Shown one piece after another: positions 1,887 to 34,060 of a stretch of 64,000 bases of DNA (position 1 is its first letter; each line of letters starts with the position of its first letter). The notes under the pieces were generated by a model. The model made no database searches. It was not told where the DNA came from and saw only the letters and a list, made by a program, of their open reading frames with translations. Position numbers and translations under genes: made by a program. Source of the DNA: a virus; the UHGV virus genome UHGV-2113617; one strand, given 5' to 3'.

Positions 1887-2573
1887 TTAAAAATCGTGGG
1901 TAGAATCAGCTTCAAGAGCTACTACATAATTCGCATGTTCACCTTCAAATTTAGCAGCGCCTTGTTTACCTTTTGCCCAGAGAAGAAGTTTATAATTTCC
2001 TGGTTGCATTTTCATATTTGCCATATTGATAATGAAATTAAATGTATTTTCACCATCATAATCACCAAGAGTCAAAGAATATTTAACACGGGTCAAAGCA
2101 GAATCTTCTACTTTGTTAAAACCGTTAATTACAATTTTACCTTCTTTTACTGTGATAGCAATTGTATCAATCTGCAGACCGCGAGATACACGCAACAGCT
2201 GTTGAAGGTCTTCAGCTTTAATTTCAGTAACAACAGATGCTACCGGGAATGGAATTGGTTTATTAGGAGCAACTACTGTACTCGGATCGGCTGCTGGCCA
2301 AAAAATTGTTGAACGGGCATCAGCAATTTTAATATTTCCATCTTCTGACTGGGAAATTTCTGCATCGTCATTAACTAGAGACAGAATACCGAGAAAACCG
2401 TTCAAATCGTAAATCGCTACATCAAAATCAATAGTGTCAGAAATATTTGCTTCTGCATAAGTTGTACCATTAACCGCGCGAGTCATAATAAATTGACCGG
2501 ATTTAAGCATAATACCGGAGTTAATAGTAGCGAAATTTTTAAGCAGAGCAGTAGTATCTTTAGACAGTTTCAT
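1887..2573 (-). CDS. 45: sliding clamp gp45
   Basis: 228 aa, same length and position as T4 gp45 upstream of 44/62. Confidence 0.85.
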   Translation of the reverse strand: MKLSKDTTALLKNFATINSGIMLKSGQFIMTRAVNGTTYAEANISDTIDFDVAIYDLNGFLGILSLVNDDAEISQSEDGNIKIADARSTIFWPAADPSTVVAPNKPIPFPVASVVTEIKAEDLQQLLRVSRGLQIDTIAITVKEGKIVINGFNKVEDSALTRVKYSLTLGDYDGENTFNFIINMANMKMQPGNYKLLLWAKGKQGAAKFEGEHANYVVALEADSTHDF

Positions 2574-2604
2574 GTAATTTCCTTCAATTCAAATGAGATT
2601 TAAT

Positions 2605-2628
2605 TTTATAACTAATTTAATAAAGCAA
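2605..2628 (-). promoter_or_regulatory. putative MotA-dependent middle promoter for gene 45
   Basis: Minus strand reads TTGCTTTA (MotA-box-like) followed about 11 nt later by TATAAA, in the rpbA-45 intergenic gap. Confidence 0.45.
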
Positions 2629-3018
2629 TTAACGATTAAAATCAGCAGCAATTGTTTCCGCAACAATTTGAGCAGCAACAATTAGACGTTCATCTGCATT
2701 ACCGCAATAATCATCTTCAAGGCGTTCACCGCATGAAGTCATAATAAATTTAGCACCAGCATTTAGAGATTCTGTCGTATGTTTGCGCATTAGTTCAATC
2801 CATTTATCACTCACTTCACGATCGATAGCTTCATAATACGCATGACGAGCAGGTGCAGATTTAATTTTATTCTGAATAACTTCCATTGCGTTATCAGAAA
2901 GAGACAAAACCCATGCTCGACGAATTTTATTTTGGTTTTGCGGATTTGATTCAGAACGCACGTGTTTTGGCTGAATATCTTTTACATCAACAGTATAATT
3001 CACAGTAATTTTAGTCAT
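2629..3018 (-). CDS. rpbA: RNA polymerase binding protein RpbA
   Basis: 129 aa ORF immediately upstream of gene 45; length and position as T4 rpbA. Confidence 0.7.
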
Positions 3019-3027
3019 AATACACCT

Positions 3028-3228
3028 TTAGTCATAATAATCAGTAACAGTCCAAGCTTCATTCCTGTTGGACATTATTTTCGTATATTCTGATTTAAAT
3101 GCATTCTTAAGCATAGATTCAGTAACTATATGCTCTTCATTAGAAAAATTATTTCTCAGAATATATCGTTTTATTTCAGGAATAGTTAATAGATGCTGTC
3201 CAGTTGAATATTCCATGTTTTCCTCCAT
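3028..3228 (-). CDS. hypothetical protein (T4 45.2 position)
   Basis: 66 aa ORF between rpbA and gene 46. Confidence 0.55.
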   Translation of the reverse strand: MEENMEYSTGQHLLTIPEIKRYILRNNFSNEEHIVTESMLKNAFKSEYTKIMSNRNEAWTVTDYYD

Positions 3229-3270
3229 AGAGATTATACTCTAATAAATTAAAGCATAATCTCTTATAAA

Positions 3271-4953
3271 TTAAACCATTACAGTAAACCGACCAACTTT
3301 CTTCATTTGGAGATGCTGACCATATGTTTGTGGGTCATGGTCTCTATGCGAAATAACAAAAACGTTAGTATTTTTTAAACTATCTAAAATAGTTGAAATA
3401 GCTTTTACACCTTCAACATCAGTTGCTGAATCAAAAACTTCATCGAGAATTAGTGTGTTTATTTTAACACCTGAAACTTTTTCAGCAATATCACGCCAAG
3501 TAAATAAAAGAGCAATATCAATTCGTGCTTTTTCACCTTGACTAAATGAAGCATAACTAAAATCTTCACGACCACGGGATTTAATTGTTTCATTAAATTC
3601 TTCATCTAATGTAAACACATAATCCGCTTCCATTATTTTAAGATAATGGTTAATCTGCTTATTAAATAATGGAATGTACTTTTTAATAATAGCACCTTTA
3701 ATACCAGAATCTTTGAGCATATCAGTCAAAATTCCTCTGTGGTATTTTTCCATTACTAAATTAGTTTTTGTCTTAACAATTTTATCAAGTTCTTCTTGAA
3801 GCAGTGCTATTTCATCAGCATGGTCAATAAACTCAGATGATGCTTTTTCTATAGCTGCTTTAACTTTTTTAGCTTTATCTACAGTCGTGATTAGAGATTG
3901 CTTTTTATTGCGAATATCATTTGCCAACGTCTGCTGGGTTTTAATATTATCTCGGTATTCATCAACAAGAACTTTTAAATTATCACGATGTGTTGAAAGC
4001 TGTTCAAACGAATGCGTGCATTCAGAAACTTTATCTTTAATTTTAGAAACAACTTTATCACCGGAACTTAATTGTGACAAACAGGTTGGACATAATCCAC
4101 CTTCGTGATACATATTAATGACTTTATTATACGAGTCAATTTTTGATTTAATTAAAAATGCTTCTTGACCGATTTTATTAAATGCATCAGTCGGGTCTTC
4201 ATCCAAAACAATATTAACTAATCTTTCATTAGCTTCTTCTATTTCCGATTTTAGCGTTCTAGCTTCTTTTGCCAAATCATCATACATATTCTGCAGACGA
4301 GTAAGGTTATCACCAGTTAATTTTTTCTGGCGTTCAACGTTATCATTATATATTTTAATTTGTTGGATAATACTATCTTTTTTAACATCAAGCACTTGGT
4401 TTTGTGAATTTAATTCACGTATTAGTGCTTTATTAAGCTTATCCATTTCAGCTAATGTTCCTACCTCAAGCAGGTCTTCCACAAGCTTTCTTCGCGCAGG
4501 GGTCGACAAACCCATGAAAGGGGTATACCCTGCTGTACCAAGGACAACAATCTGCTTGAAACTGGCATATGACATTCCGATAAGCTGTTCAAATTCTGCT
4601 TGGAAATCTTTACTGCTGGCAGATTCATTAAGACGTGTACCGTTAACGGTGATTTCGAAAACGTTTGGTTTTTGTCCTCTTTTGATATAGTACTTTTTCT
4701 CATCATATTCCATCCACAGTTCAACTAAAAGTTCTTTCTTATTTGTGCTGTTTATTAATTGACCTTTCTTTACATCACGAAATGGCTTGCCAAAAAGCCC
4801 AAATGTGATGGCTTCTAACATAGTAGACTTACCACCGCCATTTCGTCCAGTAATAAGAGTTTTTTGAACCTTATCTAGTTGAATGTCAATAGGATTTCCA
4901 CCTACTGACATTATATTTTGATACCTAACTCGATTTAGTTTAAAATTCTTCAC
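3271..4953 (-). CDS. 46: recombination endonuclease subunit gp46 (Rad50/SbcC-like ATPase)
   Basis: 560 aa; N-terminal Walker A GRNGGGKST, long central coiled coil, C-terminal ABC-type ATPase region; T4 gp46 length. Confidence 0.9.
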   Translation of the reverse strand: MKNFKLNRVRYQNIMSVGGNPIDIQLDKVQKTLITGRNGGGKSTMLEAITFGLFGKPFRDVKKGQLINSTNKKELLVELWMEYDEKKYYIKRGQKPNVFEITVNGTRLNESASSKDFQAEFEQLIGMSYASFKQIVVLGTAGYTPFMGLSTPARRKLVEDLLEVGTLAEMDKLNKALIRELNSQNQVLDVKKDSIIQQIKIYNDNVERQKKLTGDNLTRLQNMYDDLAKEARTLKSEIEEANERLVNIVLDEDPTDAFNKIGQEAFLIKSKIDSYNKVINMYHEGGLCPTCLSQLSSGDKVVSKIKDKVSECTHSFEQLSTHRDNLKVLVDEYRDNIKTQQTLANDIRNKKQSLITTVDKAKKVKAAIEKASSEFIDHADEIALLQEELDKIVKTKTNLVMEKYHRGILTDMLKDSGIKGAIIKKYIPLFNKQINHYLKIMEADYVFTLDEEFNETIKSRGREDFSYASFSQGEKARIDIALLFTWRDIAEKVSGVKINTLILDEVFDSATDVEGVKAISTILDSLKNTNVFVISHRDHDPQTYGQHLQMKKVGRFTVMV

Positions 4954-15381: not shown

Positions 15382-15702
15382 TTATAGCGTAATCCATTCT
15401 CGTATTGTCTGAGTTACTACACGTTCACGGGGCTCGACTAGTTCAACAGTCGGAACTGCATAATACCAGTCAGAATGATAAGAACCTGAACGGCATTCAT
15501 TTACGGAAACATGTACATTATGTTTTGGACTAAAATAAACACACTGACGATATTGACATTTACCGTCTTGCACCCAGTCTTCTATTTCGACAGGTTTAAG
15601 ATAATCGGAAAAATCGAAATCATAGTTTTCTGAAAATGCATCATGGTCTTCAATGATTTCACTCAGAACTGCATCAACATCTAATTTATTTTCAATAGTC
15701 AT
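15382..15702 (-). CDS. hypothetical protein
   Basis: 106 aa acidic ORF. Confidence 0.55.
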   Translation of the reverse strand: MTIENKLDVDAVLSEIIEDHDAFSENYDFDFSDYLKPVEIEDWVQDGKCQYRQCVYFSPKHNVHVSVNECRSGSYHSDWYYAVPTVELVEPRERVVTQTIREWITL

Positions 15703-15885: not shown

Positions 15886-16101
15886 TTACCCCAGTTTGAC
15901 CATACAATCGCCATATTTCCATTTAGAAATAGACTTTTCACCGTTAGAATAATAAACTTCGAGTTTAGCACGATTATTTTTAATTTGAATAACCTTTGCT
16001 GTCATCAAAGTTCCATATCCATAATAAACTGCAACCTCATCACCTACATATACCGCGCTTCCGCGGTAGTCATGGATATAATCAGTTCCTTCAAGCATCA
16101 T
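15886..16101 (-). CDS. hypothetical protein
   Basis: 71 aa ORF; overlaps nrdC stop. Confidence 0.5.
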   Translation of the reverse strand: MMLEGTDYIHDYRGSAVYVGDEVAVYYGYGTLMTAKVIQIKNNRAKLEVYYSNGEKSISKWKYGDCMVKLG

Positions 16102-16361
16102 TTAAAGTATTCCCGCAATTGGTCAAATCCACCAATATGACTTCCGTCAGGAGCAAATACCTGAGGCATCGTCAATCCGATTTGAGTATCACGACCCAGT
16201 TTAGTCAGAAGCTCAGCGATTTTCTCATCATCAAAAACACCTTTTTCCGGCATAATGTTGATAAATTCAAACGGCTGTTTCTTCACAGTCAAAAGACGTT
16301 TTGCATTATCGCAATACACACATTTGTGGATGTTGCTATCATAACCATATACTTTAAACAT
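16098..16361 (-). CDS. nrdC: thioredoxin/glutaredoxin NrdC
   Basis: 87 aa; MFKVYGYDSNIHKCVYCDNAKRLL with CVYC active site, as T4 NrdC. Confidence 0.9.
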   Translation of the reverse strand: MFKVYGYDSNIHKCVYCDNAKRLLTVKKQPFEFINIMPEKGVFDDEKIAELLTKLGRDTQIGLTMPQVFAPDGSHIGGFDQLREYFK

Positions 16362-16593: not shown

Positions 16594-16911
16594 TTACGCT
16601 TGGTCATTTTCTTCTCGGTTAAATCGGTGTTTGCAATGACGACATTTATATTCAAGCTCTGGTTTACGCCAGTTAATCAATTGGACCTGTTCAGTACCAC
16701 ATTTTGGGCAGTTCGGAACATTCTTAGAAGCCCTTTCGCGGCGTTCAACCATAACCATAATGGCATCCCAAGCAGGAGGTTTAAAGTCTAGATCGTCACA
16801 GCCATGAATCTTTCCACGCATTTCCAGATCGTCTTCTTCACCAGCCATAATGATTTTAATTAGACTGGAATTACTTGAAGCTGCAATATCTTCTAATAGA
16901 CGCTTTTTCAT
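16594..16911 (-). CDS. zinc-ribbon protein
   Basis: 105 aa; CPKCG...CRHCKH four-Cys ribbon at C-terminus. Confidence 0.55.
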   Translation of the reverse strand: MKKRLLEDIAASSNSSLIKIIMAGEEDDLEMRGKIHGCDDLDFKPPAWDAIMVMVERRERASKNVPNCPKCGTEQVQLINWRKPELEYKCRHCKHRFNREENDQA

Positions 16912-17837
16912 TTCAATACCTCAATAGCATTACGTAAACCATTTGCTTTTGCATTAAGAGCTTTTAACAATTTGGTATGTTCGGCAATCTGGACTTCAAC
17001 TTCAATCAAACGAGCATTGAGATATTCACGTTCTTCGCTCAAGTTATCAATCTTTTCTACTTTAGGTTCTTTTACAACTGGCTTATATGTATTAGGGTTC
17101 TTCAGTTTAATTAGAATGCGTGAACTGTATAACATTGAACCATTATCTTCGGTTTCGTCATACATTTCCACTACGTCCATCATCTCCACCATCGTGCAGA
17201 GTTTATAAGACAACGAACGAATAGTTTTGTTGTGCTTATTAATTTCTCTAGCTGTCATGGTGCCGAGATTACGTGAGTAATAATAAGGAACCTGGATATT
17301 AATTAATACTGATGAACCACCTGGCTTGTGTGTTACTTCATCAGCAATAACCCAGTCCTTAACATGAACTGTATTTGTACGGTCATCGCCGGCGGTAAAT
17401 AGTTTACGAGCATGCTTAAAAAGCATATTCACTTGGTCATTGAATTGACAAGTGAATTTATCAGCAAATTTAGTTTCAGGAATGGTAGATAACCAATCAG
17501 CCAAATGGGTCTTTTTAACATCGTTAACAATAGTAAATTCAACCAAATCGGTTATAGATGTCGCAGATTTAATGAAGCTCGGCTTCATAAAGTTTTTAAT
17601 GTTATCACTAGCTACAGTAGAAGATAACAGACGAGAACGTTTAAACCATTGAAGCAAATTGCCTAACGAATGAGAATAAGCGTTTTGAGTATCTTTACAG
17701 ATATGATTTTCCTGGCCAACATATTGAAAGAAATCACGAAGAATATTATTGATTACTGCTCTGTGCCCAATCTGATAATTACGGTGTTTAGTAATAAGAC
17801 TATCAAAATAATCAATATAATGTTTACGAGTTTTCAT
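16908..17837 (-). CDS. hypothetical protein, paralog family member D (C-terminal coiled coil)
   Basis: 309 aa; starts MKTR like paralog B; motif NMLFKHARKLFTAG; C-terminal ~50 aa heptad-like. Confidence 0.6.
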   Translation of the reverse strand: MKTRKHYIDYFDSLITKHRNYQIGHRAVINNILRDFFQYVGQENHICKDTQNAYSHSLGNLLQWFKRSRLLSSTVASDNIKNFMKPSFIKSATSITDLVEFTIVNDVKKTHLADWLSTIPETKFADKFTCQFNDQVNMLFKHARKLFTAGDDRTNTVHVKDWVIADEVTHKPGGSSVLINIQVPYYYSRNLGTMTAREINKHNKTIRSLSYKLCTMVEMMDVVEMYDETEDNGSMLYSSRILIKLKNPNTYKPVVKEPKVEKIDNLSEEREYLNARLIEVEVQIAEHTKLLKALNAKANGLRNAIEVLK

Positions 17838-17889
17838 GTTCTTCTCACTTGGTTAATGATTTATACTCCGAGCCATCCTTGGCTTTAAA

Positions 17890-18891
17890 TTACTTAATTA
17901 ACTGTAAAGCTTGTTCAAGACGATCCAGGCGATTAACAGATTCTTCCCAAATCCTTTTAGCCTGTTCATATTCTTTCTGCGCTTTATTAGAAATTTCTAG
18001 AGCTTCTTTATAAGCTTTTTCTAATGCAATAACTTCTGGACGAATTTCTACCGATTCAGGTGAATCATCAAGATTATCCATTAGTTCCTCAAGGGTAGTT
18101 TCTTCTTTAGGAGTATTCACAATTTCTTCGCATTTTTGTTGGTAAATTTCTTTATCAGTTAGTGAATAAGCACACTTTACTTCACGAAGACTAACTACAA
18201 TTTTGTATCCTTCCCAACCGCACACATTCTTAAAAGGATAAGTATGAATATTTTCTACTGTTTCCATACAAAGTAGTGCAGTCTCTAATTGACGAGTTAT
18301 ATCACTAGCAATTGAGAAAAATTTATTAATGTTCTTTTGATTAGCTTCTGGTGTAAAAAATTCATAATTCACAAAAATAGCTGCTTTATTTTTATCAAGC
18401 TCATATTCTTTTATGATAATCATATCAGAAGCCCAAGGATGAATTTGACGATAATCGCCATAGCATAATTTAGAAGCTGATTTTAGAATTTGCTTTTTGA
18501 AAAGTCTGAAATTACTAATCCAACGACGAGTAAAAATATTCTCAGGGTCTTCTTTATTATTAAGATGATAAGAATTAACATCACCGAACCAATTATATCC
18601 TACTACATCTTTAGTTCGTTTAATTTCTTTCCCAAATTTACCAAGAATATCCTGATTAACTAAATATGAAAGAAGACGAGAACCTTTAAAGGTTTCCTTA
18701 ATATCATCTTTATCTTCGCGACTAGAAATTTTATGAACTTCATGAATAAATTTGCTGGAAGAAACAATGCTTACATCAATATTATTTAGCCATTGATTGA
18801 TAATGGAAATAACGCTATTCTGACTAGACATAAGTTTAACTTTATCATCAATAACACTATTGAATGATTTGATATATTCGTTACGAGTCAT
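17890..18891 (-). CDS. hypothetical protein, paralog family member A
   Basis: Start at ATG 18891 (GAGGAG SD) downstream of promoter 18920-18949; 333 aa; motif RRWISNFRLFKKQILKSASKL; C-terminal coiled coil. Confidence 0.6.
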   Translation of the reverse strand: MTRNEYIKSFNSVIDDKVKLMSSQNSVISIINQWLNNIDVSIVSSSKFIHEVHKISSREDKDDIKETFKGSRLLSYLVNQDILGKFGKEIKRTKDVVGYNWFGDVNSYHLNNKEDPENIFTRRWISNFRLFKKQILKSASKLCYGDYRQIHPWASDMIIIKEYELDKNKAAIFVNYEFFTPEANQKNINKFFSIASDITRQLETALLCMETVENIHTYPFKNVCGWEGYKIVVSLREVKCAYSLTDKEIYQQKCEEIVNTPKEETTLEELMDNLDDSPESVEIRPEVIALEKAYKEALEISNKAQKEYEQAKRIWEESVNRLDRLEQALQLIK

Positions 18892-18919
18892 ATTAATCTC
18901 CTCAGTAAAAAGTAAGAAC

Positions 18920-18949
18920 ATTATACCACATCCTTGTGGTAAAGTAAAC
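18920..18949 (-). promoter_or_regulatory. T4-type early promoter (GTTTACT-17-TATAAT)
   Basis: Minus strand GTTTACT ttaccacaaggatgtgg TATAAT; inverted repeat ACCACA/TGTGGT in the spacer. Confidence 0.6.
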
Positions 18950-19980
18950 TAGTTCAGTGCATTTAGTGCATTGTTCAGTTTAGAACGTTGCTTCGTGAGA
19001 TTTTTGACTTTTTCTTGAGCTTTTTCTAGCGTCTTTTCAGCTTCTAGCACTTCATTAGTTGCTTTAACGAGTTCATCATCTACTGCCTTGATAGACTTCT
19101 CAATCGCATCTGCATGCCATTTTTCAACAGGTTTAAGACTCGGATTTTCAATAGGAAGAAAATTCACTTTATTGAATTTCCATGCATCCTTATTACCTGA
19201 ACTATACATCCAAAATTTAGGATCGTTTGATGAGTAATTGGATAAATTTAAATTTAAGTTATCTTGCACTTCCTGCTTTTTCTCTTGTGTGACTTCGTCC
19301 TTTCTCAAAAAATCGTATTTAAATGAAACGATCATATCAAGTTCATATGTTGTTGTATGTTCCCAATTTCGCTCAAAATGAGGTAAAATCTTAGACTGAA
19401 CAGCGGCAACAACATCCATATACTTAAATGCTTCTGTCAACTGCGATTTAAGGCATTCACAAATTGAAAGAGAATTTTTTGTATTAGGTTTAAAGCTAAT
19501 TCGTGCAGTTCTATTATTTTCTTTTAATGGTCTTACTTCCATCTGAAGAGTATAACCATCAAATTTCAGATTCTTTAAGTTAATATCAGAACCTTTTAAT
19601 CGACTCGCAGTTGATAAAATTTGCTTTAATTGTCTACGGAACAGAGCAATAAATCTCCATTCAATACGATAATGATTTGGATTGAAAAATCCAGATGATA
19701 AATCGACCTTACTTTGACCAACGCCTTGAACAAATAGAGGATTTTTATAATCAATAGTTTTACAGAAATCGGTGAGCTGCTCACGAGCCGTCATTTGTGT
19801 AATATACCCTGCTTTACTAAAATTACGCACCCATTCACTACTGCTATTCTTATACTTAAAGTGATGAATAGCATGATTAACTTTATCAGGGTCTAAATTA
19901 TTTTCACACAAAAATGTCATAACATCACGAGTATAGCTGGCTCTACGAACTATATCTTCAATTTGAGAACGAGTTTTCAT
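18949..19980 (-). CDS. hypothetical protein, paralog family member B
   Basis: 343 aa; motif FRRQLKQILSTASRL; C-terminal coiled coil. Confidence 0.6.
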   Translation of the reverse strand: MKTRSQIEDIVRRASYTRDVMTFLCENNLDPDKVNHAIHHFKYKNSSSEWVRNFSKAGYITQMTAREQLTDFCKTIDYKNPLFVQGVGQSKVDLSSGFFNPNHYRIEWRFIALFRRQLKQILSTASRLKGSDINLKNLKFDGYTLQMEVRPLKENNRTARISFKPNTKNSLSICECLKSQLTEAFKYMDVVAAVQSKILPHFERNWEHTTTYELDMIVSFKYDFLRKDEVTQEKKQEVQDNLNLNLSNYSSNDPKFWMYSSGNKDAWKFNKVNFLPIENPSLKPVEKWHADAIEKSIKAVDDELVKATNEVLEAEKTLEKAQEKVKNLTKQRSKLNNALNALN

Positions 19981-19988
19981 GGTATTCC

Positions 19989-20879
19989 TTAAGATTTAAG
20001 TAAATCAACAATTTTAATTAACTTTTCACGCTCAGATTTAGCTTTACTACTCAATCCAGATAGTCTGAAAATTTCATCGTCATACTGTTGAATAGAAATA
20101 TTCAGCTCTTCAATCTGCTTATTAAAATAATCAATTTGTTCAGAATGTTTTTCGTTACTACGAACCAGTACAGGTTTTGTAGGCAATTTAGTTGAACTGG
20201 ATTCATCCGGGCGATAAATTAAAATACAACTTGAACCAATAGGGCATTTAGCACCAGATGAATATTCTAGTGTTCCAGCTTCTTTTAAAACTTCAAAAGC
20301 TAAACAGAGATGATGACCCATATTGACATAATCTGTAGAGCGAGCTCTGATGTAATAATCATCTCCACGAATACTAAATTTAAAGCATTTAAGGTCTTCT
20401 GTATTATTGGTCTTAAAAATCATTTGTTTATCTAGACCTTTAGCTAATCGAGCGCCCAATGCTAATAATCGTCGTTGATTTTCCCACAAATCCGCAATCA
20501 TTTGGTCAAATGATAATTTCGGCATTAATCGACCATAAAGGTCATATCCTTTATTATAATTACGAAGGATTTCACTCGCATTAATGCGAGACAACGCTCC
20601 AATTTTATTAAGGGCTTTCATAATGCGATTAGATAAACTCATTCCAGACCCATTTGTTCGCTGTAGATGTTTTTCTAATCCAAACCCAATATCAACTTTA
20701 AATTTATCTAAAATTTCGGCATGAACATCTCTGTCAATAACGTTCAAATTCAGAGTTGGGTTAAATCTATGAAAAAATTTATCTGGCTCTCCACGACGAA
20801 ATACAGTCCATTCATTCATCATTTTTTTATTAACTAAAGATTTAATTACTGTATTGACATTATTAATTACTACTGACAT
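19989..20879 (-). CDS. hypothetical protein, paralog family member C
   Basis: Start at ATG 20879 (GTGAGGAA SD); 296 aa; motif NQRRLLALGARLAKGL; C-terminal coiled coil. Confidence 0.55.
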   Translation of the reverse strand: MSVVINNVNTVIKSLVNKKMMNEWTVFRRGEPDKFFHRFNPTLNLNVIDRDVHAEILDKFKVDIGFGLEKHLQRTNGSGMSLSNRIMKALNKIGALSRINASEILRNYNKGYDLYGRLMPKLSFDQMIADLWENQRRLLALGARLAKGLDKQMIFKTNNTEDLKCFKFSIRGDDYYIRARSTDYVNMGHHLCLAFEVLKEAGTLEYSSGAKCPIGSSCILIYRPDESSSTKLPTKPVLVRSNEKHSEQIDYFNKQIEELNISIQQYDDEIFRLSGLSSKAKSEREKLIKIVDLLKS

Positions 20880-20886
20880 ATTTTCC

Positions 20887-21300
20887 TCACTCAATTTCAA
20901 TTTTAATTTTACTAAATACACAGAATATGATGGAAAAGACTATATAAGCACCACACACAGATTGAACTAATACCATTCCAAAGAACCAAACAATATTATC
21001 AAACAATGTCTGTTTTACGTCGAAAGGACGTAAACTTACAGTAATATTATCACCTTTTTCTATTGAAGAATACATCTCTGGGGAAATATATTCACTAAAT
21101 CTATAACCGTCTTCGAGTTCATATACGGCAATAAACGATAAACTAGACCCCTTTCCTTGAGTTCCTGTAAAGGTATTAACTACAGTAACATCATAATCTT
21201 TATAATGCATATAATCATTAATTGCGTAATAACCATATGCAACTACTATACATAAACAACATATCAATAAATTCAATCTTTTAATTATCAACCGTTTCAT
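20887..21300 (-). CDS. membrane protein (N- and C-terminal TM helices)
   Basis: 137 aa with hydrophobic segments at both ends. Confidence 0.55.
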   Translation of the reverse strand: MKRLIIKRLNLLICCLCIVVAYGYYAINDYMHYKDYDVTVVNTFTGTQGKGSSLSFIAVYELEDGYRFSEYISPEMYSSIEKGDNITVSLRPFDVKQTLFDNIVWFFGMVLVQSVCGAYIVFSIIFCVFSKIKIEIE

Positions 21301-21355: not shown

Positions 21356-21883
21356 TTATGCGAGTACCGTCTTTAACCGTTCTTCAAACTTCCGAAGAGT
21401 ATTTTGGCGTTCAGCTCTTTGCTTTTTGTAAGTTTCAATACGCTCTGAAATGAGAGAGTATCGTTCATTTACTGATTCTTTCATAAAATCAGGAATTTCA
21501 CGAGAAGCTTTAATCTCGTCAAATTTATCAATAACAGCTTGCTCTTCAGCAATTAAGTTATCATACATTAAAATATCTTTCTTGATGAACTCAATATCTT
21601 CTTGAGTTACACGAGACATTTTAGATGCTTTATCATTTTTGTACTGTTCGTTAGTATCACGAGACCAGTGTAATGTACGATTTTTATTCGTATTCTTGTA
21701 AATTTCTACAATACCGATCTCATCAATAATAACGATCCAATTCCAACGGGATTTGTAAATTTGTCCTCCATCAACAGTGATTTCACCTCCGATTGAGATG
21801 TCGTTAAAGAACTTGCTTTGCGCTTCAGATTTAAATTTGCCATCGTTGTAATTTACCAAGTTGAAAATATCTTTAGCGTTCAT
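21356..21883 (-). CDS. hypothetical protein
   Basis: 175 aa; GGAGGAA SD; C-terminal charged helical region. Confidence 0.6.
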   Translation of the reverse strand: MNAKDIFNLVNYNDGKFKSEAQSKFFNDISIGGEITVDGGQIYKSRWNWIVIIDEIGIVEIYKNTNKNRTLHWSRDTNEQYKNDKASKMSRVTQEDIEFIKKDILMYDNLIAEEQAVIDKFDEIKASREIPDFMKESVNERYSLISERIETYKKQRAERQNTLRKFEERLKTVLA

Positions 21884-30999: not shown

Positions 31000-31537
31000 T
31001 TACTATTTCCAACAGTTTATTATTTTTAAGGTAGTTAGCCTTTTCTAGGACTTCAGAAGCATATTTAGAACCTGCTTTAACATTCCATCCCGAATTATAA
31101 GAGGATATTGCCTTTCTTATATCGCCCTTATGTATATTTAACCAATAAGAAAGTTCAATGTACGCCCAGGAAGCTGAATTGGACCGTTTATTCAACATTC
31201 TTTTTATTTCAGCATCGGTCATATTATAACCAAGTTCCTTAACTCTTGCTCGCATGGTCGGCAAATAATTTTGGAACATTCCATAGGCATGATGCTTTGG
31301 TTTAGATTTTAAATTAACTCCGGCAGAGCTTTCTTGCCATAAAATAGCAGCCATTATATGACCTAATCCACTCTTGTGGATATTTTTGTGTGTTTTATAT
31401 TTTCCATCCTTAGAAAATTGTTCCCCGAATTGATATGCGTAACGCATGTTATCGAGTTGGACATTACTGAAAGTATGCTCGGAGCTATGTGCCATCATTG
31501 AAATGGCCAATAGACCAGCGAGTAGTGCTTTTCTCAT
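30992..31537 (-). CDS. secreted lytic-transglycosylase-like protein
   Basis: 181 aa; signal peptide; WQESSAG catalytic-Glu motif and SYNSG, typical of SLT-domain enzymes. Confidence 0.55.
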   Translation of the reverse strand: MRKALLAGLLAISMMAHSSEHTFSNVQLDNMRYAYQFGEQFSKDGKYKTHKNIHKSGLGHIMAAILWQESSAGVNLKSKPKHHAYGMFQNYLPTMRARVKELGYNMTDAEIKRMLNKRSNSASWAYIELSYWLNIHKGDIRKAISSYNSGWNVKAGSKYASEVLEKANYLKNNKLLEIVND

Positions 31538-31544
31538 GCTTACC

Positions 31545-32006
31545 TCATTGAGTTTTAATTACTGCTTTAGAAGCCTTTCCTGGTAAACGACGACTGTTGA
31601 TAATTGCCATCCTGCACTGAAGTGACGGGTCTTTGAACTTCTCGTTAGGTTTACAAACTGTAAATCCAAGCCAAAGATTTCCATCTGTGATTTCTAAACG
31701 CCCAGGACGATATTCAACCCCATCAATAAAATCCTCATTAATGTCAGGACGCGGAGGCATACTCAGGAATTCATTAACTTCTAAAACATGGTCTTTTATT
31801 TTGTGGAATAATTCAAAAACATATGTCTCATCAATCTCCCGTTGAATTGCACGATCAAGAAGATGCTGAGAATATTTTAGATGAAACGATGAGACCCCTG
31901 CTGCTTTTGATGCCTCACGAATCTCATTGTTAATTTGACGAAACTCCGACTCAAAGTGACGACGGAGCTTATTTCGACGGATAAAAACTTCTGTGTTGAT
32001 AGTCAT
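31545..32006 (-). CDS. regB: endoribonuclease RegB
   Basis: 153 aa; MTINTEVFIRRNKLRRHFESEFRQINNEIREASKAAG matches T4 RegB. Confidence 0.9.
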   Translation of the reverse strand: MTINTEVFIRRNKLRRHFESEFRQINNEIREASKAAGVSSFHLKYSQHLLDRAIQREIDETYVFELFHKIKDHVLEVNEFLSMPPRPDINEDFIDGVEYRPGRLEITDGNLWLGFTVCKPNEKFKDPSLQCRMAIINSRRLPGKASKAVIKTQ

Positions 32007-32033
32007 GTTATTCTCCTCTTAACTGATAGAAAA

Positions 32034-32063
32034 ATTATACCACAGTCAAGAGGAAAAGTAAAC
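32034..32063 (-). promoter_or_regulatory. T4-type early promoter for regB (GTTTACT-17-TATAAT)
   Basis: Minus strand GTTTACT tttcctcttgactgtgg TATAAT, then AAGAGGAG SD and the regB ATG. Confidence 0.6.
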
Positions 32064-32065
32064 AA

Positions 32066-32386
32066 TTATTCTTTAAATCTAATCAATTTATTCATAGACT
32101 TTGTAACTTCTGCACGAACCTCATGTAGGTTTTTGAGTTGCTCAAGACGCTGCTCATAGTAAGCAATTTCATCTTCTTCGAGACAGTCCTGTGAATCTTC
32201 TTTAAGATAGCGTGCATAGTCCTGGAAAGCGTTACGGACTACTTCCTGGAAGTCATCAAGACTTTGAATTTTCTTAGGAGCAACAGATACACGACGAGGG
32301 GCAGTATAATACTCATAACCAAACCCTGCGCTTAATTGGGCCATTAATATTTTTCCTCTGGTTGGAACACAGCACGACAAGCCCAC
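32066..32386 (-). CDS. hypothetical protein (T4 vs.3 position)
   Basis: 106 aa ORF. Confidence 0.55.
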
Positions 32387-32610
32387 ATACTGGCTTCTTT
32401 GAGTTTCGTTTTAGCAATAGTTAACTGATCGAGACTTTCAGCATAATTCTTCGCGAATTCGCAGTCTTCACAATTATCTAGTGCTTCCCAGAATTCATCA
32501 TATAAAGCATCAAAGATAAGCCCTAAACGAACTTCAGCATCTTTGATAGCATTCACTTTACCGATTTTCTCTTCAGTATGTGGCTTATAACCCTTAATAT
32601 CTTCAATCAT
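32344..32610 (-). CDS. hypothetical small acidic protein (T4 vs.4 position)
   Basis: 88 aa ORF; T4 Vs.4 has been reported as a cyclic-nucleotide-binding anti-CBASS protein, but identity is positional only. Confidence 0.5.
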
Positions 32611-32824
32611 ATTTTACTTCCTCACCAGTACCTAAATCATATTCAACTAAACGAATAGGTTCATGAATGCCATATCCCTGAACAGAAATTTCTGTCGTAG
32701 GATAAATTCCATCAATATCACCCATATTCCATGCTTCATTAAATTGCTGTTCGCCTGAATTACTAAACCACTCGGCGAAAGCATTTAGCACATCTTCAGA
32801 ACCTTCAATAATTATCTTTGCCAT
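32603..32824 (-). CDS. hypothetical protein (T4 vs.5 position)
   Basis: 73 aa ORF. Confidence 0.5.
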   Translation of the reverse strand: MAKIIIEGSEDVLNAFAEWFSNSGEQQFNEAWNMGDIDGIYPTTEISVQGYGIHEPIRLVEYDLGTGEEVKYD

Positions 32825-33198
32825 TACAGACTCTCGGTAAAGGTACGAGCGATAACGTCGCGCTGCTGTTCCGGAGTCAGAGAGTTAAAGCGAACTGCAT
32901 AACCGGATACACGGATGGTCAGCTGCGGATATTTTTCCGGATGCTTAACTGCATCTTCCAGAGTTTCGCGACGCAGAACGTTAACGTTCAGGTGTTGACC
33001 ACCCTCGATTTTAACTGTAGGTTGTGTTTCAATTTCAATTTCACGGGCATGCAAACCATAGAAAATTTCTGGGTCTACAAAAGAGTCCTCTTTAAAAGTT
33101 TTAGAGACAATAATTCTTGCTTGAATACCGTCTTCAAAATAAATAGTACCTTTATGCGTGCCTTCAAGAATTTGATATGCTTTCATATAACCTCTCAA
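32824..33198 (-). CDS. autonomous glycyl-radical cofactor (GrcA/YfiD-like)
   Basis: 124 aa; C-terminal ...[56 protein letters not shown], the PFL-type glycyl-radical domain (RVSGY). Confidence 0.8.
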
Positions 33199-33521
33199 TT
33201 AGAAAATAAATTTATCCAAGACTGTTCTTTAATTAAAAATGGCTCAGAATCATATGCCATTAAACTTTGGGTGATTAGTCCTTTAAAAGGTCCATCAATA
33301 AATTCCATGGTAAAATATGGAATTTTATTCATTAATCTTGCATTAGGAGCAGTACACAAAACTCTGCATCCTTTGAATACGCCTTTTTGTAATTTGTATT
33401 GCTTAGGATAAAATTCGCTCAAGACGTTGTTATTTGCCAAAATTTCAAAATGATTCACCAATTTATTTTTAATAGTTTTTGGCGAAAAATAAAGATATTC
33501 GAAAAGCTGCGTGTCTGTCAT
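33195..33521 (-). CDS. hypothetical protein (T4 vs.7 position)
   Basis: Start at ATG 33521 overlapping upstream stop; 108 aa. Confidence 0.45.
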
Positions 33522-34060
33522 CATTGCATTCCGATTACGAAAAACTGCGGACGAGTAATACCACCGATGCAACAATTACTATTGCAGCAGTGTTGTACAG
33601 TGTCAATATGGACGCTATAAATCTTATCCATATCAGGAGATTTAACAGGCTCATCGATTATATACAAAATCCGCGAAAGCGATAAACCTCTGAACTTGCT
33701 TCCTTTATTACCGATAAAACTACGGACAGAATCGGTAAATAAACGAAAACGTATACCATCATTAGAATAACGCGAAAATTCCTTTTTAATGTTATTTGCA
33801 GAAATTTTAGCGTAAGCTGAAGTATTAGAAAGAACAATAACTGTTCCACCGTCATACAACCAATTAGCGGCAAAATTAGTTACTGCAGTTGATTTACCGG
33901 ATTGACGTCCACCATCTAGTCGAAGTGTGCAATACTGCTTAAGTAAGTCTTCAAATGGCGGGATATATTCGTTTTTACAAATTTCTTCTACTCTAGCATC
34001 AGAATGGTGTGTAAAAGCATTCATCAGGGATAGATAAGGACCAGTTAAAAATGTTCTCAT
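33521..34060 (-). CDS. P-loop NTPase (T4 vs.8 position)
   Basis: Start at ATG 34060 (GAGAG SD); 179 aa; Walker A GGRQSGKST, Walker B ILYIIDEP. Confidence 0.55.
   Translation of the reverse strand: MRTFLTGPYLSLMNAFTHHSDARVEEICKNEYIPPFEDLLKQYCTLRLDGGRQSGKSTAVTNFAANWLYDGGTVIVLSNTSAYAKISANNIKKEFSRYSNDGIRFRLFTDSVRSFIGNKGSKFRGLSLSRILYIIDEPVKSPDMDKIYSVHIDTVQHCCNSNCCIGGITRPQFFVIGMQ

Follow-up and report, generated by a model that had tools for sequence, protein, structure and literature searches.

Four divergent tandem genes of a T4-like phage, nrdC.3 to nrdC.6: a probable paralogous family of early inhibitors of host immune proteins

Introduction

Why should a T4-like phage carry four adjacent genes, similar in length and orientation, whose products have diverged so far that standard sequence comparison links barely one pair of them? 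The question is raised by positions 16908-20921 of the virus genome UHGV-2113617, analysed here as a single stretch of 64,000 nucleotides (the window). An original prediction, made from the letters of that stretch, had described an array of four consecutive minus-strand open reading frames (ORFs) at this place, and the list of frames agrees with it (16908-17837, 309 amino acids (aa); 17890-18921, 343 aa; 18949-19980, 343 aa; 19989-20921, 310 aa). About 4 kb of the genome of the best-studied phage is given over to these genes, which correspond to nrdC.3, nrdC.4, nrdC.5 and nrdC.6, and one of them has a known phenotype, namely the activity of NrdC.5 against the bacterial defence protein Dsr1. 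If the four are copies of one type of protein, that activity becomes a lead for the three others, and for structural relatives that are found in T4-like phages of Acinetobacter, Klebsiella, Serratia, Erwinia and Yersinia.

The analysis described below suggests, with a probability that we put at roughly six in ten, that a single ancestral gene gave rise to the array by tandem copying and extensive divergence, and that the products of the four paralogues are made early and inhibit immune proteins of the host.

Identity of the four genes

A megablast search with positions 16908-20921 matched 660 records of T-even-type phages at 80-99% DNA identity, and in the same search the matching genes of phage T2 were found to be annotated as nrdC.3, nrdC.4, nrdC.5 and nrdC.6. 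The window belongs to a T4-like phage (Tequatrovirus) with a GC content of 32-39%, and the thioredoxin gene nrdC lies just downstream of the array, at 16098-16361. The four genes, which follow one another on the minus strand in the order 6-5-4-3 and encode proteins of 296-343 aa, are therefore nrdC.3, nrdC.4, nrdC.5 and nrdC.6 of a T4-like phage. Many GenBank records label homologues of these genes 'thioredoxin', a name apparently taken from the nrdC prefix; a Pfam scan found no thioredoxin similarity in any of the four proteins.

Four divergent copies of one ancestral gene

When the four proteins are compared directly by BLASTP, only nrdC.3 and nrdC.4 are significantly similar (25% identity over 226 aa, E 3e-5), with nrdC.4 and nrdC.5 at E 0.04. 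The proteins are also distributed among three separate PHROG families without assigned function, 1435 (nrdC.3 and nrdC.4, each matching the full 334-position profile), 2351 and 2257, and among the Pfam families PF26897 (nrdC.4 type), PF23882, also named DUF7235 (nrdC.5), and PF26899 (nrdC.6 type). Against these families, nrdC.5 scores 414.6 bits against PF23882 (gathering cut-off 30 bits, whole profile covered, E 3.6e-124), the label PF26897 stands on every nrdC.4 homologue listed (32-98% identity) and PF26899 on every nrdC.6 homologue listed (40-98%), and no match to PF23882 was found in nrdC.3, nrdC.4 or nrdC.6 at E <= 1, so that those three are related to DUF7235 at the profile-profile or structural level only.

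Comparison of families, rather than of single proteins, gives a different picture. Family alignments were built from database homologues together with syntenic loci in other genera, and their hhalign scores were compared with a null of 60 column-shuffled versions of the profiles. The nrdC.3 and nrdC.4 families matched at 97.7% (E 1.8e-12), with a score of 90.0 against 15.0±2.1 for the shuffled profiles; the nrdC.4 and nrdC.5 families matched at 92.8-94.3% (E 4e-7 to 1.1e-7, 236-239 columns), with a score of 56.2 against 15.0±2.1. Each of these two matches spans a length within the range of 225-239 columns. Furthermore, nrdC.4 and nrdC.5 are reciprocal best non-self matches among the 136 ORFs of the window, and a distant member of the family (P0233) matches the nrdC.3, nrdC.4 and nrdC.5 profiles alike. 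The nrdC.5-nrdC.6 and nrdC.3-nrdC.5 profile matches are restricted to the tail of the proteins. The nrdC.6 profile scored 22.4 against a null of 14.8±2.4 (a value reached by 0 of 60 shuffles), in an alignment that is colinear and holds the two motifs described below in register.

The paralogy of nrdC.3 and nrdC.4 is thus solid, and that of nrdC.4 and nrdC.5 is solid once profiles are used; nrdC.6 joins them through predicted structures, not through sequence. The original prediction had proposed to judge paralogy by pairwise similarity and by whether each protein maps to a family of its own. Taken literally, that test leaves the claim shaky, because BLASTP links one pair only and the proteins fall in three families, yet profiles and models still link all four.

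At the level of sequence searches the nrdC.4/nrdC.3 family appears very narrow: a HMMER search with its profile among 1.84 billion representative sequences retrieved 10 proteins only, and reached neither nrdC.5 nor nrdC.6. In scans of the four proteins against Pfam, NCBIfam and PADLOC, the only match over the cut-offs was that of nrdC.5 to DUF7235; the PDB, searched by sequence, yielded designed helical repeats and chance matches only, and no further copies of the array genes were found elsewhere in the 64-kb window. In the literature searched, no paper was found that describes the paralogy of nrdC.3 to nrdC.6 or the mechanism of NrdC.5; the function of NrdC.5 is already published, and the superfamily relationship of the four, which does not appear in that literature, seems to be new.

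A shared motif, a shared tail and two predicted structures

The central basic motif that had been noticed by eye is present in all four proteins, at equivalent columns of the nrdC.3-nrdC.4, nrdC.4-nrdC.5 and (non-significant) nrdC.4-nrdC.6 profile alignments. It can be written approximately as hydrophobic-L-x-x-[AG]-x-[KR]-L-x(1-3)-G-(x)-D; few stretches of the nrdC.4 family are as well conserved, and in the nrdC.6 family none is. All four proteins also contain a second motif, F-K-G-S-R-L-L-S...D-I-L..F.K, which is colinear among them.

The C-terminal coiled coil of about 50 aa that had been proposed for each protein is also borne out. The best 42-aa heptad window is the extreme C terminus in all four cases. 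Hydrophobic residues fill 10-12 of its 12 a/d positions, and its score was reached by 0-5 of 200 whole-protein shuffles, so that each of the four tails is a predicted coiled coil.

Single-chain AlphaFold models were obtained for NrdC.4 (pLDDT 83.8, pTM 0.68) and NrdC.6 (pLDDT 78.1, pTM 0.66). In both, the basic motif forms the second helix of a helical hairpin (residues 132-142 of NrdC.4 and 135-145 of NrdC.6), and the chain ends in a long helix (48 aa in NrdC.4; 30 plus 19 aa, kinked, in NrdC.6). From the hairpin onward the two models display the same order of elements, H-H-h-E-E-H-E-E, a linker and the long terminal helix. In Foldseek searches of BFVD, the NrdC.4 model matches NrdC.6 of phage JS10 (E 2.9e-5, prob 1.0), and seven uncharacterised proteins of Straboviridae, approximately 300-346 aa long, are matched by both models. 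Within the limits of prediction, these results support the view that NrdC.6 shares the fold of NrdC.4 and is a member of the family.

Counter-defence function and a proposed mechanism

The starting point for any proposal on function is the report of Srikant et al. 2022 (PMC9391042), in which NrdC.5 was identified as a counter-defence factor against the Dsr1 sirtuin defence: T4 nrdC.5 restores plating of a T4 deletion mutant on Escherichia coli carrying dsr1 of ECOR17, which encodes a SIR2-domain defence of the NADase type. The nrdC.5 of the window is 93% identical over 334 aa to NrdC.5 of T4 strain 147 and occupies the same position, and is thus its orthologue. A 2026 preprint reports that the sensor domain of Dsr1 recognises a phage major capsid protein. 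The nrdC.1 to nrdC.6 block can be deleted (PMC9825161), and all four array genes are non-essential in transposon mapping (HIDEN-SEQ tables). The slot of the array is part of a run of dispensable accessory genes, several of them with published anti-defence activity. Close by, gp49.2 is reported to inhibit OLD and nrdC.1 to inhibit Septu (bioRxiv 2025.11.20.689424; PMC13096335), and the stretch from pin to nrdC.6 looks like an anti-defence island. An inhibitor family is favoured because of the anti-Dsr1 phenotype of NrdC.5, the dispensability of the genes and their anti-defence neighbours, and the other three members are good candidates for a similar task because NrdC.5 is already known to disable one system of bacterial defence against phages.

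In the mechanism proposed here, the four proteins would share one architecture: an N-terminal helical part, a hairpin with the basic motif in its second helix, a beta-beta-alpha-beta-beta core, a poorly ordered linker, and a C-terminal amphipathic heptad helix of approximately 45-50 residues. Made early, before the late structural proteins, they would bind host immune proteins stoichiometrically and prevent their activation, and the coiled-coil tail may let them dimerise or form larger oligomers. A scaffold common to all four would be provided by the conserved helix and core, while variable N-terminal and sheet surfaces would direct each paralogue to a different target, with NrdC.3, NrdC.4 and NrdC.6 acting as probable inhibitors of other defence proteins. 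Such a defined scaffold, with its conserved helix, core, coiled-coil tail and variable surfaces, would lend itself to the study of how phage inhibitors are retargeted.

Distribution, selection and allele history

Across T4-like phages, the slot between nrdC and nrdC.10 holds two, three or four copies according to genus. All four genes, in the order 6-5-4-3, are present at Tequatrovirus loci; VR25/VR26-like and JS10/IME281-like phages lack nrdC.3 and have nrdC.6, an nrdC.5-like gene that has diverged strongly (approximately 300 aa) and nrdC.4; and RB69 carries nrdC.6, nrdC.5 and nrdC.3, without nrdC.4. In Acinetobacter phage Acj61, a member of another subfamily, the interval from nrdC to nrdC.10 holds two neighbouring genes of 330 and 304 aa, which agree in length with two of the Foldseek matches (E5E4A1 and E5E4A2); this pair has motif-like helices and C-terminal heptad helices ending in LNKALE and LAKAL, and is linked to the array by Foldseek, motifs, architecture and synteny only, the profiles having failed to detect it. 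In the phage collection, nrdC.3 was found in 654 records, nrdC.4 in 554, nrdC.5 in 582 and nrdC.6 in 742, always as one copy per record. The gene content of the slot differs among T-even phages of the type used in therapy, a difference that may bear on the range of defence-carrying strains open to them.

Several loci depart from these arrangements. In two records, L008 (7971-9003) and L019 (T4 strain 147, 2485-3514), nrdC.4 is broken into two frames, by either a frameshift that made a pseudogene or a sequencing error. On a 167-kb contig, a natural fusion protein of 299 aa (P0056) joins residues 145-274 of NrdC.5 to NrdC.3 from the basic motif on (junction ...KFNKVN / MLFKHARK...), with nrdC.4 deleted; the fusion corresponds to about 17430-19548 of the window, and since the join lies at non-homologous positions it looks like a microhomology deletion. 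The NrdC.6 of Shigella phage Sf25 (P0121) has 378 aa, approximately 82 of its residues (IRAHSTDYVN...FNKQIEEL) being tandemly duplicated internally.

Within Tequatrovirus, the ratio of non-synonymous to synonymous substitution (dN/dS) ranges from 0.11 to 0.32 in nrdC.3 to nrdC.5, from 0.05 to 0.16 in nrdC.6, and from 0 to 0.12 in nrdD, nrdG, gene 49, nrdC and nrdC.10. This indicates that the array genes are real, constrained coding genes under relaxed purifying selection. Between genera they diverge far faster than the core: in comparison with RB69, nrdC.6 is 33% identical and nrdD 98%. The suggestion that such an array reflects a host-interaction arms race holds in so far as one member, NrdC.5, has a published counter-defence role; the race itself finds faint backing in ratios that exceed those of the core neighbours but lie far below 1.

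The nrdC.2 and nrdC.3 genes (16594-17837) exist as two old allele classes (synonymous divergence, dS, of about 1) amid near-identical Tequatrovirus neighbours, with protein identities of 93-97% as against 60-72%, and of about 60% between the nrdC.3 classes; this stretch is a mosaic exchange point. The window carries a class different from that of T4, T2 and T6, and nrdC.3 in its 654 records splits into three identity classes.

Weighing the proposal against its alternatives

Several results count against a family of immune inhibitors. No published phenotype was found for nrdC.3, nrdC.4 or nrdC.6 in the literature searched, and in the HIDEN-SEQ comparison examined the same three genes have no effect on fitness (q = 1.0). 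The array genes show no positive selection at the level of the whole gene (dN/dS 0.05-0.32). The hhalign matches of nrdC.6 to the others are not significant (1.4-2.0%, E 0.024-0.037), so that its place in the family depends on predicted structures; those structures cover two of the four proteins, NrdC.4 and NrdC.6, and their structural matches reach TM-scores of 0.37-0.50 only, values that are modest because the long terminal helix is free to swing. Finally, it is we who infer that NrdC.5 binds Dsr1 directly, and the role of the coiled coil, like the anti-defence role of NrdC.3, NrdC.4 and NrdC.6, is put forward here as probable.

A bolder version of the proposal, which we regard as unlikely, would unite nrdC.3 to nrdC.6 and their structural relatives in Straboviridae in one ancient, fast-diverging superfamily of oligomeric immune-sensor inhibitors. 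Each copy would neutralise a different sensor of virion proteins, such as Dsr1 or the Avs7-type sensors, which share a sensor domain with Dsr1, and the core, faintly similar to tail terminator proteins, would act as a decoy of a structural protein.

It is more doubtful that the four proteins serve a role in host takeover unrelated to immunity, in which the basic helix would bind nucleic acid or a housekeeping protein, for example, and the effect on Dsr1 would be indirect. The most conserved element is indeed a helix rich in Lys and Arg, the conserved parts are the scaffold and tail and not the variable surface, and no defence phenotype is reported for three of the members. Nevertheless, the genes are dispensable on laboratory hosts and sit among published anti-defence genes, the sole known phenotype of a member is specific to one defence gene, and family and structure searches detected no nucleic-acid-binding domain.

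Less probable again is a single hetero-oligomeric complex, of which the four proteins would be subunits, held together by their similar coiled-coil tails and acting jointly. This would suit genes that are adjacent and co-oriented, and tails that are all heptad-like and close on related endings of the L-x-x-A-[LI]-x-x-L-K kind (LRNAIEVLK, LEQALQLIK, LNNALNALN and LIKIVDLLKS), an ending that recurs in Acj61 and in P0233. It is hard to reconcile with the observation that plasmid-borne NrdC.5 alone restored plating on Dsr1 cells (the paper does not state which other copies that phage carried), with copy numbers of two, three or four by genus, with an nrdC.4 that is split in L008, missing in RB69 and deleted in the P0056 fusion, or with an nrdC.3 that exists in two allele classes, 60% identical, beside near-identical nrdC.4 to nrdC.6.

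That the proteins act as decoys, mimicking a phage structural protein through an alpha/beta core like that of tail terminator or completion proteins and so occupying the sensors of virion proteins, seems improbable: the core is matched just as well by nitroreductases and by RNA-polymerase alpha/Rpb11-like domains, and may therefore be a common alpha/beta sandwich, and Dsr1 is reportedly triggered by a capsid protein and not by a tail terminator. Least probable of all are four unrelated proteins that have a coiled-coil tail and, by chance, a short motif in common, for although most BLASTP pairs are not significant, three PHROG and Pfam families are involved and two of the profile matches cover the tail only, this explanation is largely refuted for nrdC.3, nrdC.4 and nrdC.5 by long profile matches far above the shuffled nulls, and is opposed further by the element order and common Foldseek matches of the NrdC.4 and NrdC.6 models and by the same syntenic slot across the phage family.

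Gene starts, promoter and coordinates

Early promoters of T4 have a -35 element GTTTAC, a spacer of approximately 17 nucleotides (nt) and an extended -10 element TG-n-TATAAT. The site at 18948-18920, for which an early promoter serving one member of the array had been claimed, combines these features (TTTACT-17-TATAAT with TG, preceded by G) with an intergenic position and the correct orientation. It matches 10 of 12 consensus positions and is among the three best in the region, although such matches are not enriched as a class (26 found, 27.4 expected). The real support for this putative promoter comes mainly from conservation, not from the consensus match: GTTTAC, TATAAT, GAGGAG and the ATG stay unchanged across 11 loci of three genera (Tequatrovirus, VR25/VR26-like and JS10/IME281-like phages), where the spacer and flanks vary, and the prediction of a promoter at this place is to that extent upheld.

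The same region settles the start of nrdC.4. The ATG at 18921, which opens the 343-aa frame, falls within the -10 box and is missing from several of the 11 compared loci, whereas the ATG at 18891 (MTRNEY) follows seven bases after GAGGAG. The PHROG alignment begins at residue 11 of the long frame, the homologues are mostly 333 aa, and the T4 annotation in a 2025 preprint gives nrdC.4 as 1002 nt; because all of these agree on 333 aa, the true start is 18891, not 18921. The start of nrdC.6 is likewise the ATG at 20879 (296 aa), not the GTG at 20921, because the alignment to PHROG 2257 begins at residue 15 of the long frame and because homologues and the T4 annotation agree with it. Two smaller statements of the original prediction need amendment. 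Three of the four proteins begin M(K)TR, where two had been said to start MKTR; and the N-terminal regions, described as different, are divergent, but not unrelated, because those of nrdC.3 and nrdC.4 align from residue 2-3.

The late-promoter box of T4 is TATAAATA. The 52-nt gap between nrdC.4 and nrdC.3 (17838-17889) holds TATAAATC, which matches it at seven of eight positions, together with a short GC-rich hairpin.

Table 1. Features of the nrdC.3 to nrdC.6 array, in coordinates of the window
Feature	Coordinates	Strand	Remarks
nrdC.3	16908..17837	-	309 aa; closest paralogue of nrdC.4; PHROG 1435, E 1.5e-114
nrdC.4	17890..18891	-	333 aa from ATG 18891; open frame extends to 18921; PHROG 1435, E 1.5e-164
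nrdC.5	18949..19980	-	343 aa; orthologue of T4 anti-Dsr1 gene; Pfam DUF7235, E 3.6e-124
nrdC.6	19989..20879	-	296 aa from ATG 20879; open frame extends to GTG 20921; PHROG 2257, E 3.1e-150
Shine-Dalgarno GAGGAG of nrdC.4	18898..18903	-	same in 11 loci
Putative T4-early-type promoter, (G)TTTAC-17 nt-TG-n-TATAAT	18920..18948	-	between nrdC.5 stop and nrdC.4 start
Conserved basic helix motif, nrdC.3 (NMLFKHARKLFTAGDD)	17382..17429	-	aligned with nrdC.4 motif
Conserved basic helix motif, nrdC.4 (RLFKKQILKSASKLCYGD)	18454..18507	-	helix 132-142 of model
Conserved basic helix motif, nrdC.5 (FRRQLKQILSTASRLKGSD)	19585..19641	-	profile alignment
Conserved basic helix motif, nrdC.6 (RRLLALGARLAKGLD)	20430..20474	-	helix 135-145 of model
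C-terminal heptad (coiled-coil-like) helix, nrdC.3	16911..17054	-	heptad scan
C-terminal heptad helix, nrdC.4	17893..18027	-	heptad scan; model helix 285-332
C-terminal heptad helix, nrdC.5	18952..19116	-	12/12 a/d positions hydrophobic
C-terminal heptad helix, nrdC.6	19992..20144	-	heptad scan; model helices 243-272 and 277-295

Neighbouring genes and database annotation

On the upstream side of the array, nrdC.8 (21356-21883, 175 aa) also ends in a highly charged C-terminal helix with a heptad pattern, whose score was reached by 6 of 200 shuffles. It was considered as a further member and set aside, since it has the heptad tail but no homology to the array was found. A promoter-like sequence, TTTACA-17-TACTAT with TG, lies just upstream of it, at 21940-21912. 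On the other side, a minus-strand ORF of 106 aa (15382-15702) lies between nrdC and the genes on the gene 49 side. Only one of the five Tequatrovirus loci compared has a counterpart of this ORF, which is therefore a variable insertion. In Acj61 (31228-33937), genes for nicotinamide phosphoribosyltransferase and ribose-phosphate pyrophosphokinase are adjacent; such a pair is described in the literature as an NAD+ reconstitution pathway against NAD-depleting defences. In the T6 record AP018814.1, product names are displaced from their genes: the nrdC.5 homologue, for example, bears the name 'tail sheath stabilizer', and a gene of 87 aa is called 'ribonucleotide reductase alpha subunit'.

Comparison with known systems

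The closest known system is T4 NrdC.5 itself (DUF7235), of which the gene at 18949-19980 is the orthologue: the two are 93% identical and have the same neighbours, and the window gene matches DUF7235 over the whole profile. The other three genes, nrdC.3, nrdC.4 and nrdC.6, share the architecture of NrdC.5, but differ from it in having no DUF7235 match at E <= 1. The neighbouring anti-OLD protein gp49.2 and anti-Septu protein NrdC.1 resemble the array in being early, dispensable and confined to Straboviridae, but both are small proteins, unrelated to the array and not homologous to it.

A functional parallel is offered by DSAD1 of SPbeta-like phages, a phage protein that is described as inhibiting DSR2, a virion-protein-sensing NADase defence with a SIR2 domain. 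By analogy it would provide a plausible model for direct binding of Dsr1 by NrdC.5, although no relation in sequence or fold was found and DSAD1 is not among the BFVD or PDB matches.

The internal proteins IPI, IPII and IPIII of T4 provide a parallel of another kind, in that they also form a small, paralogous and dispensable set, the members of which counter particular defences and the content of which varies among T-even phages. The internal proteins are small, have a capsid-targeting sequence and enter the cell by injection after being packaged in the head, whereas the nrdC.3 to nrdC.6 products are proteins of about 300-340 aa, expressed from putative early promoters after infection and equipped with a predicted coiled-coil tail.

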